Assembly (NCBI GenBank): GCA_031367385.1
Contig: JANLPS010000503.1
Span: forward strand, 1 to 41,714
DNA from: Archangium sp.
Lineage (GTDB): Bacteria; Myxococcota; Myxococcia; Myxococcales; Myxococcaceae
Direction: 5' to 3'
Length of the DNA: 41,714 bases
The notes below the pieces were generated by a model. That model was not told the DNA's origin, did no database searches, and saw only the letters and a list, made by a program, of their open reading frames with translations. The translations under genes were made by a program, and so were the position numbers. This document shows positions 25,025 to 34,652 of this stretch, one piece after another. Numbering within the stretch: the stretch's first letter is position 1; every line of letters begins with the position of its first letter.

Positions 25025-25753
25025 ATGAGCTTCGACGAACTCGCCCACTATCTCCGACTCGGCGGCCTGACGACCGCGGTCATTTTGTTCGCTTCTGTGC
25101 TCGCGTTGGGTGTCGCCATCGAGCGGCTGATCGCGCTGTGGGGCGTGCGCTCGTCGACCCGTGAGCTCGGTGAGCAGATCGCCAAGCACCTGCTTCGCGG
25201 AGACCTCGCAGCGGCCAAATCAGCGGCCGAGCGGTCGACCGCCTTGAGCGCTGACCTGTTTCGAGCCGGGTTCGAGCGCGCGGTGAAGACCACCGGGCCT
25301 CCGCTCGATGCAGCGGTCGATCGTGAGCGGCAACAGCTGGCCCTTCGAATGAAACGCGGCTTGTGGATTCTCGGCACCATCGGCGCGACCACCCCGTTCG
25401 TCGGCTTGTTCGGCACCGTGGCGGGCATCATGCGCTCGTTTCGAGACCTGGGCCTCGATGTCGGTGAAGGCGGTACCGGTGGCTCGGCGGCGGTGATGAC
25501 CGGCATCTCCGAAGCGCTGGTCGCGACGGCGGTCGGCATCGTGGTCGCCGTTGAAGCGGTCATTCTGTACAACATTTTTCAGGCCCGGCTCTCGCGGGTG
25601 AACGTCGAGATGAAGCTCATCGCCGAGGAGTTCGTCGAGCTCCTGCGCGAGGCGGCCCCGAATGGCAAGTTGCCGGCGATGCTCCCTGGCGCCCCGGGCG
25701 TCACTGCGGCGGGCGAAACCAGCGCGGCTGCTGTCTCTGTTGGAGGCGTGTAA
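25025..25753 (+). CDS. MotA/TolQ/ExbB proton channel protein
   Basis: LGTIGATTPFVGLFGTVAGIM, GISEALVATAVGI, YN.F. Confidence 0.93.
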   Translation: MSFDELAHYLRLGGLTTAVILFASVLALGVAIERLIALWGVRSSTRELGEQIAKHLLRGDLAAAKSAAERSTALSADLFRAGFERAVKTTGPPLDAAVDRERQQLALRMKRGLWILGTIGATTPFVGLFGTVAGIMRSFRDLGLDVGEGGTGGSAAVMTGISEALVATAVGIVVAVEAVILYNIFQARLSRVNVEMKLIAEEFVELLREAAPNGKLPAMLPGAPGVTAAGETSAAAVSVGGV

Positions 25754-25756
25754 GCC

Positions 25757-26212
25757 ATGGCGCTCGGCAAGGTACCGGGCGACGACCCGGCGACCGGCGA
25801 CGACGGCGTCTTCGCCGAGATCAACATCACGCCGTTGACCGATATCTTCTTGGTGTTGCTGATCATTTTCATGGTCACCAGCTCCGTCATCGTGAACACC
25901 AGCAATGGCGCGCGGGCGGGCCTGAAGGTGAACTTGCCTCAGGGTGGTCACGCCGACGTCGCGGCCCAGGCGTCAGACATGTCAGTCGCGATTCTGCAAG
26001 ACGGCACCTTGATGCTCTCGGGGGCGCGGGTCAGCGCTGACGAGCTCAAGAAGGCCTTCGACGACGCGAAGGGCAAGAACGCCGACACCCTGGTGGTGGT
26101 GCAGGCCGATGAAGGCGTACCGCACGGCAAGGTGGTCGAAGTGATGGAGCTCGCCAAGGGTGCCGGCTTGGGTCAGCTCGCCATCGGCGTGCGCGACGGG
26201 CCGGGCAAGTAG
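25757..26212 (+). CDS. ExbD/TolR biopolymer transport protein
   Basis: EINITPLTDIFLVLLIIFMV with the conserved TM Asp; VNLP; ADEGVPHGKVVEVM. Confidence 0.93.
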   Translation: MALGKVPGDDPATGDDGVFAEINITPLTDIFLVLLIIFMVTSSVIVNTSNGARAGLKVNLPQGGHADVAAQASDMSVAILQDGTLMLSGARVSADELKKAFDDAKGKNADTLVVVQADEGVPHGKVVEVMELAKGAGLGQLAIGVRDGPGK

Positions 26213-27812: not shown

Positions 27813-29495
27813 GTGATTCGCGAGGCCTTTCAAGACCTGAACCGACTGCGCCAGATCGCGGTGATCGCTGGCCGGTATGGGTTCAGCAATTTGCTCGAGC
27901 GCTCGGGCGTCAAGAAGTCGGTGCCTGACGCGAAGATCGAAGAAAACCAGGAGACTCGCACCCACACCGTCGCACGTCGCTTTCGGCTGATGCTCTCTGA
28001 CCTGGGCCCGACCTTCGTCAAGCTGGGTCAGGTGATGTCGACCCGCGGTGACATGCTGCCGGCCGAGTTCATCGAAGAGCTCTCGGCGCTCCAAGATCAC
28101 GTGCCCCCGTTCGGGTTCGACTTGGTACAGGCACAGGTGCGCGCTGGCCTGGGCCGCGAGCTCGAAGAGATCTACTCGGAGTTCGAGGTCGAGCCCCTCG
28201 CCGCCGCGTCGATGGCCCAGGTGCATCGGGCGAAGACGATGGCGGGCGCCGACGTGGTCGTCAAAGTGCAGCGCCCCGACATCGCCGAGCAGATGCGCGC
28301 CGACCTCTCGGTGCTCCACTACGTCGCGCGGCTGCTCGAAGCGGTGATTGAAGAGGTGGGCGTCTACACCCCGACCGGCATCATCGAAGAGTTCGAGAAG
28401 GCGATCGTCGAAGAGCTCGATTTCTTGAATGAAGCCGCGAACATTCGGGCGTTCTACCGCACGCACCAGAACCGCCCGAAGATCAAGATCCCCAAGGTGT
28501 ACGACGAGCTGACCAGCCGCGTCGTGCTGACGATGGAGTTCATCCCGGCTCCGAACTTGTCGAAGGCGAACTTGACCGAGTCGGGCAAGCAGCGGCTCGC
28601 CGAGATTCTGCTCGAGGAGGCCTTCAAGCAGCTCTTCGAAGACGGGCTGTTTCACGGCGACCCGCACCCCGGCAATCTGTTGGTGCTCGAAGAGGGCCCG
28701 ATTCTCGCGCTGATCGATTTCGGGTTGGTCGGGCGCGTGACCCGTCAGATGCAAGAGACGCTGATTCAGCTAATTCTGGCCATCGCGCTCAAAGACTCCG
28801 AGTCGGTAGCCAAGACGTTGTACCGGCTGGGCACGCCTGATTCGCGCACCAACTTGATCTCGTTCAGGTCTGACATCGACGCGATCTTGACGACCTACCT
28901 GCCGGCCTCGCTCAAAGACGTCAACGCCAAGCATCTGCTGCGCGACCTGCTGAACCTGGCGATGAAGTATCGAATTCGGGTGCCGCGCGAGTTCGCGATT
29001 CTGTCGCGGGCGTCGATCGCGATCGAAGGCATCTTGCGCTCGCTCTACCCAGAGATGCCGATCGCGCAGATCTTTCTGCCCTACGGCAAGCAGCTGATGG
29101 CCGACCGCTTCGACCCGAGCCAAATCGAAGGCAGCGTGATGAAGACGTTGCTGCGGTTGCAGACGGCGGCGAGCGACCTCCCGGTGCAGCTGCAACAGAT
29201 CTTGCTCGACCTCGAGTCGGGGCGCTTTCGAGTCAACGTCAAGTCTGAGCAGCTCGAGCAGATGACGCAGAGCCTGCGAGCGCTGTCGGTGGTGACCTTC
29301 TCGGGGCTGTGCGCCTGCGGGTTCATCATCGGCACCTTCATCGCGTTCGCGAACAAGCCATGGGAGGTCGGCGGCATACCGGTGATGGGGGTGCTGGGCA
29401 TCGCGGGCACGGTGTTCTTGTTCTCGACCGCGGTGGTTCGCCAGCTTTGGCGCGGCTTTCGAAAAGTCAGCATCAAGCGTTTTCTCAAAAAGTAG
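27813..29495 (+). CDS. AarF/ABC1/UbiB atypical kinase-family protein with two C-terminal TMs
   Basis: LGPTFVKLGQ (KxGQ), PLAAASMAQVH, VVKVQRP, ELDF..EA, FHGDPHPGN, IDFGLVG. Confidence 0.95.
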   Translation: MIREAFQDLNRLRQIAVIAGRYGFSNLLERSGVKKSVPDAKIEENQETRTHTVARRFRLMLSDLGPTFVKLGQVMSTRGDMLPAEFIEELSALQDHVPPFGFDLVQAQVRAGLGRELEEIYSEFEVEPLAAASMAQVHRAKTMAGADVVVKVQRPDIAEQMRADLSVLHYVARLLEAVIEEVGVYTPTGIIEEFEKAIVEELDFLNEAANIRAFYRTHQNRPKIKIPKVYDELTSRVVLTMEFIPAPNLSKANLTESGKQRLAEILLEEAFKQLFEDGLFHGDPHPGNLLVLEEGPILALIDFGLVGRVTRQMQETLIQLILAIALKDSESVAKTLYRLGTPDSRTNLISFRSDIDAILTTYLPASLKDVNAKHLLRDLLNLAMKYRIRVPREFAILSRASIAIEGILRSLYPEMPIAQIFLPYGKQLMADRFDPSQIEGSVMKTLLRLQTAASDLPVQLQQILLDLESGRFRVNVKSEQLEQMTQSLRALSVVTFSGLCACGFIIGTFIAFANKPWEVGGIPVMGVLGIAGTVFLFSTAVVRQLWRGFRKVSIKRFLKK

Positions 29496-30278
29496 ATGCT
29501 CGTCGCCACCGCGTCAGTCAGCGTTCGTTACGGCGACCACGCGAGCCGAACTCATGGTGACCAGAGAGCCTCTCATGGTGACCAGAGAACCTCTCATGGT
29601 GACCAGAGAACCTCTCATGGTGACCAGAGAACCTCTCATGGTGAGCCTGTCGAACCACGACCCCACGACGACGGCGTCATCGCCCTGCGCGACGTGACAA
29701 TCGAGATCAACCCCGGCACCAAGGTCGTTCTGTGGGGCGCCGCGGCCAGTGGCAAGACGACCCTGCTCAAGACCCTCGCTGGGCTGATCAGGCCCTCGAG
29801 CGGTCACGTTCGGTGGGGCCACCACGACCCCGCAGCCCTGACCTCGTCTGTTCGTCGCGAGCTGCAGTCGAACTTCGGCATGGTGTTTCAGTCTGATGCC
29901 CTCTTCGACTCGATGTCGGTGCTCGAGAACGTCTTGTTGCCGCTGCGAAAACGGCGGGTGCCCGAAGACGAAGCCAGGGCGCGGGCGCTCGAGGCGATTG
30001 AGCGGGTGGGCCTCACCGACGCGATGCTCAAGCGCCCCGAAGCACTCTCAGGGGGCATGAAAAAGCGCTGCGGCGTCGCGCGGGCGATCGTCTCGCGACC
30101 CAGCGTGCTGCTCGCCGACGACCCTTTCGCCGGCTTAGACCCTGCCACTGAAAAATCGATCGCCGAGCTGCTGCTCGAGGTGTCTCGAGGGCGCACGCTG
30201 ATCGCCGCCCTGCCCGACCCTGTCGACGCGTTGCCGGCCGACAGGCTGGTGCACCTGACCCAGGGTGAGCTCACGTGA
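29496..30278 (+). CDS. MlaF-like ABC ATPase 1 (degenerate Walker B/H-loop, N-terminal repeat insertion)
   Basis: GAAASGKTT, GMVFQSDALFDSMSVLENV, LSGGMKKR, LADDPFAGLDP, no switch His; ATG immediately follows the aarF stop. Confidence 0.88.
   Translation: MLVATASVSVRYGDHASRTHGDQRASHGDQRTSHGDQRTSHGDQRTSHGEPVEPRPHDDGVIALRDVTIEINPGTKVVLWGAAASGKTTLLKTLAGLIRPSSGHVRWGHHDPAALTSSVRRELQSNFGMVFQSDALFDSMSVLENVLLPLRKRRVPEDEARARALEAIERVGLTDAMLKRPEALSGGMKKRCGVARAIVSRPSVLLADDPFAGLDPATEKSIAELLLEVSRGRTLIAALPDPVDALPADRLVHLTQGELT
29551..29644 (+). repeat. 21-bp tandem repeat CTCATGGTGACCAGAGAACCT, 4 full units + 10-bp partial, in frame within mlaF1
   Basis: Units start at 29551, 29572, 29593, 29614 and 29635 (partial); unit 1 has one A>G difference; encodes (S/T)HGDQR(A/T). 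Confidence 0.97.
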
Positions 30279-31030
30279 GCTGGGTGATGCAGCTGCTGCG
30301 GCTCGGTGGCGCGATCGGTCTGGTGCTCGCCCGCACCGTGCTGCATTTGCCCAAGCTCGACCGCCGTGAGCTTGGGCGCTCGCTCTTCTTGTTCGGCTAC
30401 AAGTCGATGCCCCTGGCCGTCGGCACCGGCGCTTTGATCGGGTCGACGGTCGTGCTCCAGGCGGGCGTCTACGCGAACAAATTCGGCACCCGCCAGTACA
30501 CCGGGTGGGCCGCCGGGTACGCGCTGGTCTGGGAGTTCGGCCCGCTCCTCCTCGGCCTGATGCTCGCCGCACGCATCGGAGCCCGCAACGCCGCCGAGCT
30601 CGCCCTGCTCTCGGTCAACGGTCAAATCGAAGGGCTGCGCGGCATCTCACTCGACCCGTTTCGAATCTTGGTGGTGCCCCGCGTGCTGGCGAGCGCGATC
30701 TCGGTCACCGCGCTCTCGACGGTGACCTTTCTGGTCGCGATCGCCTGGGAAGGCATCTCGGCCTACTTCACGCTCTCCCTGCCCCTGCGGGTCTTCTTCA
30801 ACTCGTTTTCAGAGCTGCTGGGCGTTGGTGACCTCGCGGGCGGCATTCTCAAGTCGCTCGCCTTTGGCACCGCGATCGCGCTCGTCTCCACGGCCGTGGG
30901 GCTCCGTGCCACCGGGGGCGCTCGAGGCGTCGGCCAAGCGGCAGCCTCAGCAGTCGTGATGAGCTGCGGCTCAATCTTCGCGCTCGATTTTCTGCTCACA
31001 CCGGTGCTGATGCGGGTGTTCGGCACATGA
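30275..31030 (+). CDS. MlaE/YrbE-family permease 1
   Basis: EFGPLLLGLMLAARIGARNAAELA, QIEGLR..DPFRILVVPR, GGARGVGQAA. Confidence 0.92.
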   Translation: MSWVMQLLRLGGAIGLVLARTVLHLPKLDRRELGRSLFLFGYKSMPLAVGTGALIGSTVVLQAGVYANKFGTRQYTGWAAGYALVWEFGPLLLGLMLAARIGARNAAELALLSVNGQIEGLRGISLDPFRILVVPRVLASAISVTALSTVTFLVAIAWEGISAYFTLSLPLRVFFNSFSELLGVGDLAGGILKSLAFGTAIALVSTAVGLRATGGARGVGQAAASAVVMSCGSIFALDFLLTPVLMRVFGT

Positions 31031-31773
31031 GTGAGCTGCTGCGAGTCAGCGGCGCCACGCTGGTGCTCTTCGCGCGTACCTTGCGCAGCATTCGCCGTGA
31101 GGGGCTCTCGTTCAGACAGACACTGGTGCAGGCCTACGCGCTCGGGGCCTCGTCGGCGCTCCTGGTCGGCATGGGCATGACCTTCTTCGGCGTGGTCGTC
31201 ACGAGCATCGCCTACGCCCAGGCGCGCAAATACGTGGGCAATGTCACGATCTTGGGGCCCGCCTACTTCGAGCTCATCGTTCGCGAGTTCGCCCCGATGA
31301 TGACCGCGTTGCTGGCCGCCTCGCGCTCGGCCGCCGCGACCTCGGCCGAGCTGGGAGCGATGTCGGTCAACGAGCAGATCGAAGCGCTCGAATTGTCAGC
31401 CGCCGACCCGATTGCCGAGCTGGTCGCGCCCCGGCTGGTGGCCTCGGTGCTCTCGATGCCGGCCCTGAGCGTCATCGGCATCGCCACCGCCAGCATCAGC
31501 GCCGCGCTCAGCGTGACCTACCTCTTTCACGCCGATGGCTGGAGCTTCGTCGACCCCCGCTTTATCGAGCGCGGCGACGTGCTCTGCTCCTTCGTCAAAT
31601 CGGTTCTCTGCGGTGCTTTCATCCCCCTTATCGCGTCGGTGCGTGGCTTCGCAGCCCGAGGTGGGGCCGCCTCGGTCGGAGACGCCGTCACCCTGGGCGT
31701 GGTCGGCGCCTGCATGGGCTGCCTGGTGATCGACTTTCTGGTCGCCGCGACCTTTCTGGTAATCGGGCTGTGA
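31027..31773 (+). CDS. MlaE/YrbE-family permease 2
   Basis: REFAPMMTALL..SAELGAMSVNEQIEALE..DPIAELVAPR, GGAASVGDAVT. Confidence 0.92.
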   Translation: MSELLRVSGATLVLFARTLRSIRREGLSFRQTLVQAYALGASSALLVGMGMTFFGVVVTSIAYAQARKYVGNVTILGPAYFELIVREFAPMMTALLAASRSAAATSAELGAMSVNEQIEALELSAADPIAELVAPRLVASVLSMPALSVIGIATASISAALSVTYLFHADGWSFVDPRFIERGDVLCSFVKSVLCGAFIPLIASVRGFAARGGAASVGDAVTLGVVGACMGCLVIDFLVAATFLVIGL

Positions 31774-32447
31774 TTTCATTCGACCAGGTCACCAAGTCGT
31801 TCAATGGCGTCACCGTGCTCGAGGGCCTGAGCGCCACCATTTCACTCAGTGGCATCACCTTCATCGTCGGCAAGTCAGGCAGCGGCAAGTCGGTGCTCTG
31901 TCGCCTCGCGGTGGGCCTGCTCAAGCCTGACTCAGGCGCGGTGCGCGTCTTCGACCAGCGCGTCGACCAATTGCCAGAGCGCGAGTTGCAAAAGGTGCGA
32001 GCCCAGCTGCCGTACCTGGTTCAAGGCCCGGCGCTGCTCGACTGGCTCACGCTCGAAGACAACGTGGCCCTGGCCTCTGCGAACTCGAAGGTCGATGGCC
32101 GTGCACATCAGGCACTGGAGCGGGTCGGGCTCAAAGACCTCACCACCCGTATGCCTCCCGCGGTTGGGCCGGGCATTCGCAAGCGCGCCGCCATCGCCAG
32201 GGCGCTCGTTCTGGCTCCCGCGTTCTTGCTGCTCGACGAGCCAACGACCGGTCTTGACAAAGAGGCCTCGGGCCAGGTCAACGACACCCTGCGACGCCTG
32301 CGCGACGAAGGCCTCGGCGCCGCGCTGGTCTCGCATGACTACCGCGCACTCGATGGCCTCGCCGACCACGTGATTGAAGTGCGAGATGGCAAGACCGGCT
32401 ACCAGGGCGGCAAGACAGGCTTTCTCTCGACGAGGAGCGAGCACTGA
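31770..32447 (+). CDS. MlaF-like ABC ATPase 2 (degenerate signature motif)
   Basis: GKSGSGKS, LLLDEPTTGLD and VSHD intact; signature reads VGPGIRKR instead of LSGG. Confidence 0.9.
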   Translation: MISFDQVTKSFNGVTVLEGLSATISLSGITFIVGKSGSGKSVLCRLAVGLLKPDSGAVRVFDQRVDQLPERELQKVRAQLPYLVQGPALLDWLTLEDNVALASANSKVDGRAHQALERVGLKDLTTRMPPAVGPGIRKRAAIARALVLAPAFLLLDEPTTGLDKEASGQVNDTLRRLRDEGLGAALVSHDYRALDGLADHVIEVRDGKTGYQGGKTGFLSTRSEH

Positions 32448-32474: not shown

Positions 32475-33206
32475 TTAAGAGACCGGGGCCGGCTCCACCG
32501 GCGCCTCGGCGTGCTTGGTCACGACCCGTGAATTCAGCGCGGGCACGTGCTCATCGACTTGGTCGCCGAAGAGGTTCGCACCGTGACGCCACAGCTCGGC
32601 GTGCTGCTCGAGCACCAGCGTCCACAACCGGGCCTGATGATCGAGCGCTTTCGACAGGGCGAGATTCGGCAGCTCCACCGTGCCAGAGGGGGTCGCGATG
32701 TCGAGGTACGTGCGGGCGCGGGCCACGCGTTCGTCGAGCTGATCGGCGCCGAACATCTTCGCTTTGATTTCGGGCGAGGCGTTGGCGATCGCAGCCATGG
32801 CAATGACGTCTTTGGCTGCATCAATCGGCCCCGACCCAGCACGAATGCGTTCGATCTCGGCTTCATCGACCAGCCCGTTGGTGGCCCAGAGCTCGGCTTG
32901 CGGCATCAACGCGGCCCGGTCTGCCCAAATCTGATTGATCATCTGAACGTTGATCTTTGTCTTCGCGCGCTCCTGGGCGATCTTCAGCGTGGCGTCGTGG
33001 AGCGCGTCGAGCAGGACGGTCAACCTTGGCTCGGCTGGCACGTACTTGATCAACATGCCTTTGAGCTTCTCGTGGTGTGGTGCCACCGAAGCCAGGCCGA
33101 CGCGAGCGTTCTGCCTGACGACATCGAACGACGAGAGAAAGGCTTTGACCTGTGCCGGTGAAAGACTGGCGGCTTGAGCGAGAATGGCGGCAAGTAACGA
33201 TTGCAT
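32475..33206 (-). CDS. Hypothetical, predicted helical cytoplasmic protein inserted antisense within the mla operon
   Basis: 243-aa ORF with strong RBS (GAGGAG) upstream; C-terminal RLWTL..LW..G..LFG..VD.HVP.L pattern; no recognised domain. Confidence 0.75.
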   Translation of the reverse strand: MQSLLAAILAQAASLSPAQVKAFLSSFDVVRQNARVGLASVAPHHEKLKGMLIKYVPAEPRLTVLLDALHDATLKIAQERAKTKINVQMINQIWADRAALMPQAELWATNGLVDEAEIERIRAGSGPIDAAKDVIAMAAIANASPEIKAKMFGADQLDERVARARTYLDIATPSGTVELPNLALSKALDHQARLWTLVLEQHAELWRHGANLFGDQVDEHVPALNSRVVTKHAEAPVEPAPVS

Positions 33207-33635: not shown

Positions 33636-34652
33636 ATGAGCAACGACGAAACCCGCCTCGAGCTCAAAGTGGGTGCCCTGCTGGCGGCTGCCATCATCGG
33701 CGGCCTGGTGCTGCTCGCGCTGATGGGTGAGCTGCATCTGGGCTCTGCCAGCCAGCTCGCCGTCGACTTCGCGCACACCGGCAACGTGGTGAAGGGCGCT
33801 CCGGTCAAGCTCGGGGGCGTCGTGGTGGGCCGCGTCGATCAGGTCGAGCTGCTCGCCACTCGCCGCGACATCGACAACGAGCCGCTGCCAGTCAAGATGC
33901 ACCTCGGCCTCAGCGTTGAAGCCGTGGCCTCGCTCCGCACCGACGCGTCGGTGACCATCGCGACCCAGGGCCCTTTGGGAGAGCCCTACCTCGAGCTCTG
34001 GCCCGGCTCCCAGGCCACTGCACACGACCCGAAGCTCTCGGTTCGCGGCATCGACCCGCTTCGCATCGACCTGGTGGCCGGCCGCCTGTCAAAGCTCCTC
34101 GAAGCCGCTGGCAGAACCATCGAGAACGACCCCCAGGCGATCGGCAAACTGCTCACCGGTGTCGGCAATCTCAGCACCACCGTCGACGGCATGCTGGTCG
34201 AGAACCGCGAGCAGGTACGCGACATCGCCACTGAGCTCGCCGGCGCCGTGAAAGACCTGCACGCCTTGTCGTCACTGCTCCGCACCCAGCTCGAGCCGGG
34301 GGGCCGTGCGCACGCGTTGATCGACGACGCGGCTGCCACCGCGAAGCTGGCTCGCACTGACTTGCCCGACCTCTCGAAGAAGGCCTCGGTCGCGCTCGGA
34401 GGTCTCGCAGGCATCGCTGGCCCCCTCACCGAAGAAGATGGCCAGCGCCTGAAGGCGATGATCGCGAAGTACCAATCGGCTGGCGAAAAGCTCGACGCGA
34501 TCGCGACCCGCGCCGACAAGCTGCTCGCCAGAATCGATTCAGGCGAAGGCACACTGGGCGCGCTGGCCAAAGACAAAGAGGTCTACGACGACCTCAAGTC
34601 GCTGCTGGCCGACCTCCGCAAGCACCCGTGGAAGATGTTGTGGAAGGATTAG
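33636..34652 (+). CDS. MlaD/MCE-domain protein with long helical C-terminus
   Basis: ELKVGA + TM, GAPVKLGGVVVGRV, IATQGPLGEPYLELWPG, GEGTLGAL..VYDDL..DLRKHPWK. Confidence 0.93.
   Translation: MSNDETRLELKVGALLAAAIIGGLVLLALMGELHLGSASQLAVDFAHTGNVVKGAPVKLGGVVVGRVDQVELLATRRDIDNEPLPVKMHLGLSVEAVASLRTDASVTIATQGPLGEPYLELWPGSQATAHDPKLSVRGIDPLRIDLVAGRLSKLLEAAGRTIENDPQAIGKLLTGVGNLSTTVDGMLVENREQVRDIATELAGAVKDLHALSSLLRTQLEPGGRAHALIDDAAATAKLARTDLPDLSKKASVALGGLAGIAGPLTEEDGQRLKAMIAKYQSAGEKLDAIATRADKLLARIDSGEGTLGALAKDKEVYDDLKSLLADLRKHPWKMLWKD

Follow-up and report, generated by a model that had tools for sequence, protein, structure and literature searches.

How would a transporter of the MCE family work if its operon encoded two ATPases, each lacking a different part of the ATP site? 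The question is raised by a 41,714-nucleotide stretch of Archangium sp. DNA (Myxococcota, Myxococcaceae; assembly GCA_031367385.1, contig JANLPS010000503.1, positions 1 to 41,714 of the forward strand; hereafter, the window), in which one operon encodes two MlaF-type ATPases (MlaF1 and MlaF2, or F1 and F2), two MlaE-family permeases (E1 and E2) and one MCE protein (MlaD). Judging from their motifs, the five products would form a single F1F2E1E2-MlaD transporter, one of whose ATP sites is consensus and the other degenerate, a reading to which we give a probability of roughly 80%. Its genes are as follows:

29496..30278, + strand: MlaF1 ATPase subunit, 260 aa; signature and D-loop intact, Walker A, Walker B Glu and His switch degenerate
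30275..31030, + strand: MlaE1 permease (PF02405, E 2e-50, above cut-off); coupling-helix Glu replaced by Gly
31027..31773, + strand: MlaE2 permease (PF02405, E 9e-46, above cut-off); coupling-helix Glu retained
31770..32447, + strand: MlaF2 ATPase subunit, 225 aa; Walker A/B, Q-loop and His intact, signature broken
33636..34652, + strand: MlaD/MCE protein, 338 aa (PF02470, E 7e-11); hydrophobic N-terminal segment, one MCE domain, ~210-aa C-terminal extension

An MlaE-family permease, an MCE-domain protein and an MlaF-type ATPase are all present at this locus, and neighbouring genes among F1, E1, E2 and F2 share 4-base overlaps. Both permeases also match TIGR00056, at scores under its cut-off. 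With ~34% identity between E1 and E2 and ~31% between F1 and F2, these are two distinct permeases and two distinct ATPases. The motifs on which our reading depends lie at these positions:

29736..29759, + strand: F1 Walker A, GAAASGKT; Lys87 retained, conserved Ser and middle Gly gone
30045..30059, + strand: F1 signature, LSGGM; intact, would complement the F2 motifs at the consensus site
30111..30125, + strand: F1 Walker B, LADDP; Asp209 replaces the catalytic Glu
30207..30221, + strand: F1 switch region, ALPDP; Pro240 replaces His
31869..31892, + strand: F2 Walker A, GKSGSGKS; canonical
32163..32177, + strand: F2 signature, VGPGI; broken
32229..32243, + strand: F2 Walker B, LLDEP; catalytic Glu157
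32328..32339, + strand: F2 switch, VSHD; His189

A preliminary description of this DNA had read F1 as keeping LSGGM while carrying Asp for the catalytic Glu (LADDP) and no switch His, and F2 as canonical in GKSGSGKS, LLDEP and VSHD with a broken VGPGI signature; both readings are borne out by the sequence. The His column of F1 was assigned by alignment to canonical MlaF, and Pro240 directly follows strand 234-239 in the F1 AlphaFold model. Single-chain models (pLDDT 88.8 for F1, 96.2 for F2) depict intact ABC folds and nothing beyond folds; a Foldseek search with a single-chain model returned the general ABC fold and did not tell MlaF from FtsE, LolD or MacB. No motif codon carries a variant in contigs from four public DNA runs of two studies, one of which runs may be the source of the window. 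The same genome holds three further MCE operons, each with one permease and one fully canonical MlaF. Because every motif is intact in these three and in 39 of 39 canonical MlaF controls, the defects of F1 and F2 exceed what chance would give.

ATP sites of ABC proteins are composite: one nucleotide-binding domain (NBD) supplies Walker A/B, A-loop, Q-loop and switch, and the other supplies signature and D-loop (PMC12038006, PMC7367683). An F1-F2 dimer would therefore combine one all-canonical site with one that collects every defect, and each homodimer of the window's proteins would be defective twice.

Is this complementary pattern conserved? Orthologues were sampled at 20 loci from the 49 genomes of the family with an F1 match, and then at loci elsewhere in the order and the phylum. 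Three groups emerged from a tree built on 159 ATPases: F1 (59 genomes), F2 (48) and canonical MlaF (39). Scanning metagenomes with an alignment of Polyangiales-type F2 contributed a further 15 F1 and 51 F2 proteins from 80 loci, for combined motif counts of 74 F1 and 99 F2. Genome G162 was left out of all counts; ATPase ORFs that were weak or shorter than 170 aa, three partial metagenome F1 and four partial F2-type matches were dropped, as was the frameshifted F1 ORF L095, the core of which was later recovered.

In F2, Walker A Ser, Gly and Lys, together with Gln, Asp, Glu and His, were retained in all 99 proteins (48/48 genome, 51/51 metagenome), and the first signature Gly was lost in all 99; the signature Ser was lost in 77 and the second Gly kept in 98. 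F1 showed the reciprocal state with more variation. Its signature retained SGG in 73 of 74 proteins (59/59 genome, 14/15 metagenome), the catalytic Glu was present in 30 (17/59 genome, 13/15 metagenome) and the switch His in 4 (2/59 genome, 2/15 metagenome). Only two F1 proteins had both Glu and His, so that at least one of these positions was non-canonical in 72/74; among the 59 genome proteins, 42 combined Glu to Asp with His loss, 15 had lost His only and 2 neither. The P-loop middle Gly occurred in 25/74, and the A-loop aromatic was less conserved in F1 than in F2. Database sets, which partly overlap the genome and metagenome sets, gave a similar picture: SGG was found in none of 120 near and none of 120 distant F2 proteins, all with DEP and SHD, and the signature was intact in 119/119 distant F1 proteins (120 matches less the fused protein P0248), 114 of which had at least one defect. 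Their residue pairs at the Glu and His positions were Glu+Ser (102), Asp+His (6), Glu+His (5), Glu+Thr (4), Glu+Asn (1) and Asp+Ser (1).

Both proteins are under purifying selection, with dN/dS of 0.09-0.33 for F1 and 0.05-0.24 for F2 in 10 genome pairs. Local decay of the motifs is ruled out by this selection together with the conservation of the defects across orthologues. The alignment called for in the preliminary description thus found the complementary pattern across Myxococcota genomes and Polyangiales-like contigs rather than canonical orthologues. Its expectation that the paired defects would be conserved stands in full for the F2 signature loss, which is invariant, and in part for F1, in which the double defect is not universal (42/59 genome proteins). 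The same data bear on a reading in which E1-F1 and E2-F2 are two separate homodimeric transporters sharing MlaD, or decaying duplicates. Such a reading would follow the rule, since homodimeric ATPases drive both MlaFEDB and Mce1 (PMC7790496, PMC7367683, PMC9882608), but each homodimer would be defective at both sites, both genes are held by purifying selection and the motif losses sort by site, not randomly; we regard it as highly improbable.

The residues that F1 retains bear on what its site might do. Walker A Lys and Walker B Asp are present in 74/74 F1 proteins and Gln in 73/74, and an acidic residue occupies the catalytic Glu position in all 74. Since Lys, Asp and Gln are kept, ATP binding with little hydrolysis is expected, and the second site is probably not empty but degenerate; the altered F1 P-loop and the F2 Pro or Asp could weaken binding. 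The preliminary description had proposed a single catalytic site, and this needs rewording: one consensus site stands, but the other is better called degenerate, given the Walker A Lys, Walker B Asp and Q-loop that F1 keeps. It is distinctly unlikely that the heterodimer forms with both sites hydrolysing ATP at useful rates, the substitutions merely tuning kinetics. The retained F1 residues, the many F1 proteins with Glu and the second signature Gly of F2 would suit such an enzyme, but the family of the window has lost Glu and His jointly with Ser and Gly of the P-loop and Ser and Gly of the signature opposite, and comparable changes strongly impair hydrolysis in characterised sites (PMC12038006, PMC8640958).

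F1 and F2 travel together. Among the 68 genomes of the family searched with both queries, 49 had both, 19 had neither and none was discordant, although these absences are not independent because they fall in whole genera. Of 56 genomes whose F2 motifs were read, 55 had an F1 match (the exception, G293, is 81% complete), and F2 was found in 54 of 59 F1 genomes. Three small genomes have the operon split into three loci (F1, E1-E2 and F2) and keep all of them. Distances among F1 proteins correlate with those among F2 proteins (Spearman 0.76 over 46 genomes), a value that we do not count as evidence because vertical descent alone would give the same. Two metagenome loci are rearranged: L353 reads F1-E2-F2, with no E1 between, and L357 reads F1-F2-D, with no permease match within the locus.

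Several observations weigh against an obligate heterodimer. F2 was not found in five of the 59 F1 genomes. In G065 the miss falls where the contig ends, and this genome was not searched further; G281 (86% complete) has E1-E2 and no F2 match; G018 (89%), G301 (74%) and G234 (96%) have F1 with neither F2 nor E1 found, G234 being the best counter-example. The F1 cis site is fully canonical in 2/59 genomes (G350 and G354) and has Glu and His in 5/119 database proteins, and in these F1 might be active as a homodimer. The F1 signature is altered, to LAGGL, in a single metagenome protein (L377), and Walker A Lys is missing in 1/120 near F2 proteins. All of these counts overstate independence because the genomes are kin. 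Finally, the three canonical MlaF proteins of the window's genome could in principle partner F2.

This last point leads to a further alternative, in which a canonical MlaF from a different MCE operon completes F2, while F1 is a pseudo-ATPase whose role is optional, inhibitory or regulatory and may be linked to the ABC1/UbiB-family atypical kinase (ABC1K) encoded next to it. The genomes examined contain canonical MlaF, mycobacterial MceG reportedly serves several systems (PMC9882608), F1 often lies beside ABC1K while E1-E2-F2-D lie elsewhere, and G234, G018 and G301 would be genomes with F1 alone. Yet the kinase is found in 68/68 family genomes, including the 19 without F1 and F2, so F1 tracks F2 and not the kinase; F1 accompanies F2 in all but one of the F2 genomes; and in G205, G350 and the Polyangiales-like contigs F1-E1-E2-F2 has no ABC1K match beside it. 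We consider this alternative unlikely. The narrower idea that F1 is an obligate ABC1K subunit is ruled out, given that the kinase persists in genomes without F1. ABC1/UbiB kinase genes adjoin F1 in many lineages, even where E1-E2-F2-D are elsewhere, and the kinase may serve the same lipid pathway independently of the transporter.

Returning to the F1-F2 heterodimer, we asked how its asymmetry arose. In trees, F1, F2 and canonical MlaF fall together, apart from other ABC ATPases. With motif columns removed F1 forms one group with SH-aLRT support of 98; other subsets gave 89 (with one long outgroup row inside) and 57. The broken F2 signature has a single origin (support 99-100). On the F1 tree built without motif columns, a minimum of 9 changes between Glu and Asp is required, and of 10 changes at the Walker A Gly. 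The minimum number of His changes on the genome-only F1 tree is one; we nevertheless infer repeated loss, because the replacements differ by group (Asn or Thr; Ser; Ala or Pro) and the survivors are scattered (G350, G354, G269, L377 and L383). Since the F1 defects vary and arose repeatedly, the F1 double loss is a derived state. The simplest order of events suggested by these patterns would be loss of the F2 signature first, followed by relaxed selection on the facing F1 residues. As to whether F1 and F2 are sisters that arose by tandem duplication, free trees keep them apart, but grouping both in a single clade is not rejected (p-AU 0.54, with one long-branch outgroup left out).

Other members of the MlaF family have also changed. 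A stand-alone paralogue with LSGGM intact, Walker B DDP and no switch His occurs in L262 (G363), L267 (G334), L268 (G361) and L270 (G192), with no MlaE or MlaD match nearby, and G192 has neither F1 nor F2; because it falls inside the canonical MlaF group, its decay was separate from that of F1. Another orphan MlaF, in G356 (L436), has kept DEP and lacks the His. The N-terminally cut protein P0248 (435 aa) is a fusion of two MlaF-like ATPase domains, of which the second has the signature ISAGQ, and scores best against canonical MlaF, not F1 or F2.

The permeases offer a hint as to how the two halves might be paired. The coupling-helix Glu is replaced by Gly in 31 of 47 E1 proteins, which form one nested group, and E2 keeps Glu in 46/47. 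On about the same branch as the E1 change, ten conserved F2 positions are altered, compared with two in F1, and seven of these ten lie next to Walker A or on the Q-loop strand, segments that we take to line the permease-binding groove. This points weakly to E1 coupling to F2 and E2 to F1; it is a hint only, because the event is single.

Together, these observations suggest the following scheme. The two MlaF ATPases, the two MlaE permeases and the MCE protein probably come together in one envelope transporter for lipids, F1-F2-E1-E2-MlaD. At the consensus site, F2 would give Walker A, Q-loop, Glu157 and His189 and F1 would give LSGGM and the D-loop, and this site would hydrolyse ATP and reset the cycle. 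At the degenerate site, the F1 P-loop, with Lys87, Asp208 and Gln132, probably binds Mg-ATP; having no catalytic base and no His, and facing the xGPG of F2, it would hydrolyse slowly or not at all and might serve as a hinge, as in exporters of the ABCC and TM287-288 type. Historically, the F2 signature would have broken once and the facing F1 residues decayed repeatedly. A lipid substrate and the direction of transport are predicted from family membership only. We are more tentative, at a little under even odds, about the fuller proposal that this is a phylum-wide asymmetric F1F2E1E2 MCE transporter with a degenerate site built from free subunits, whose intermediates record signature loss and then repeated loss of His, Glu and P-loop Gly, and in which F2 is wired to E1 so that single hydrolysis drives one-sided lipid extrusion.

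Three other features of the window adjoin or interrupt the operon:

27813..29495, + strand: ABC1/UbiB-family atypical kinase, 560 aa (PF03109, E 7e-71); syntenic neighbour
29551..29644, + strand: 21-bp tandem repeat, 4.5 copies (SHGDQRT), in F1, within a 46-aa insert
32475..33206, - strand: inserted antisense ORF, 243 aa, without a Pfam or NCBIfam family; outside the transporter system

The gene order is thus ABC1K-mlaF1-mlaE1-mlaE2-mlaF2-(insert)-mlaD, and the kinase stop codon directly abuts the F1 start. F1-E1-E2-F2-D order is kept in 19 of 20 family loci, mlaD coming after F2, and the remaining locus stops at a contig edge. The antisense ORF has 8 further matches in the same genome (33-78% identity) and is missing from its position between mlaF2 and mlaD in most relatives. 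The 46-residue insert of F1 lies in the first beta-hairpin, between strands 1 and 2, is absent from the 7 nearest orthologues shown and is a low-confidence loop in the AlphaFold model; the repeat copy number is unsure because contigs of the sequencing runs break there. At mlaE2 positions 31564, 31588 and 31617 all four runs differ from the window base, two of the differences altering a residue; these are possibly errors in the window assembly. An ExbB/TolQ and ExbD/TolR gene pair lies upstream of the kinase (25025-26212, + strand). A promoter and terminator scan yielded nothing clearly exceeding shuffled sequence. The operon has no gene for MlaB or MlaC; MlaC has 2 matches elsewhere in the genome, MlaB was not searched genome-wide, and MlaA has 0 matches in this 98%-complete genome.

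Similarity searches beyond the trees were less specific. Close F2 homologues carry the source labels Myxococcaceae, Archangium or Myxococcota. A scan of genome contigs with F2 returned 40 unrelated ABC ATPases (23-37% identity; L031-L070, unused), a plasmid search returned 6 distant matches, and the ESM Atlas returned generic ABC clusters. The supplement of PMC4103005 lists Myxococcus xanthus disruption mutants by locus tag only; among them is a run, MXAN_3908-3912, that might, as a guess, be the operon, and these tags turned up in no further paper. We caution that annotation labels both F1 and F2 ordinary ATPases.

How does this system compare with known ones? The preliminary description knew of no account of such an architecture, and we likewise found no description of an MCE transporter with two unequal ATPases in the full-text literature, a coverage that leaves out most subscription papers. 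Its statement that characterised MCE ATPases are homodimers agrees with the available accounts of MlaF (PMC7790496, PMC7367683) and MceG (PMC9882608). MlaFEDB (E. coli 6xbd/6xgy, P. aeruginosa 7ch8, A. baumannii 7d06; a type VIII ABC transporter) is F2E2D6B2, built from one ATPase gene and one permease gene around an MlaF homodimer (PMC7790496, PMC7367683). It shares with the present system MlaE-family permeases, an MCE protein and MlaF-type ATPases, and the LSGGM of F1 is the signature that typifies Mla/TGD ATPases (PMC7367683). The present system differs in having two ATPase and two permease genes, no MlaB or MlaC in the operon, no genomic MlaA match and a longer MlaD. Mycobacterial Mce1 (YrbE1A/B with MceG, 8fed) likewise has a heterodimeric permease and MCE proteins with helical extensions; it combines an MceG homodimer with six different MCE proteins (PMC9882608; bioRxiv 2022.06.08.495402), whereas here one MCE gene accompanies a predicted ATPase heterodimer.

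Two separately encoded ATPases per transporter are also a trait of the ECF transporters (EcfA/EcfA'), in which the membrane fold differs and both ATP sites are largely canonical. EcfTAA' is listed in a table of PMC8386196.

The closest parallel at the ATP sites is with the heterodimeric exporters (TM287/288, BmrCD, MsRv1273c/72c, ABCC1, CFTR), in which degenerate sites are well known (PMC5216877). These show the same change of Glu to Asp and loss of His, facing a signature altered at its first Gly (PMC12038006, PMC8640958, PMC5216877); substitutions include LSVGQ and LSHGH signatures (PMC8640958) and the pair Asp497/Gln528 (PMC12038006). Exporters of this kind are type IV, with NBDs fused to membrane domains, whereas here free NBD subunits would sit on MlaE-type permeases, so that correct pairing must be enforced at assembly. 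Because the fold differs and F1 and F2 group with MlaF, the degenerate site appears to have arisen independently of the exporters, on another transporter fold and from separate small subunits. The reason for a crippled site in many ABC exporters has been called unclear (PMC12038006). In the myxobacterial system natural intermediates range from F1 with all motifs intact to F1 with four defects. Given these intermediates and separate subunits that can be expressed, mixed and mutated singly, it becomes directly testable what a degenerate site does and whether lipid transport needs two hydrolysis events, in a system that, unlike the exporters, keeps its NBDs free of the membrane domains.

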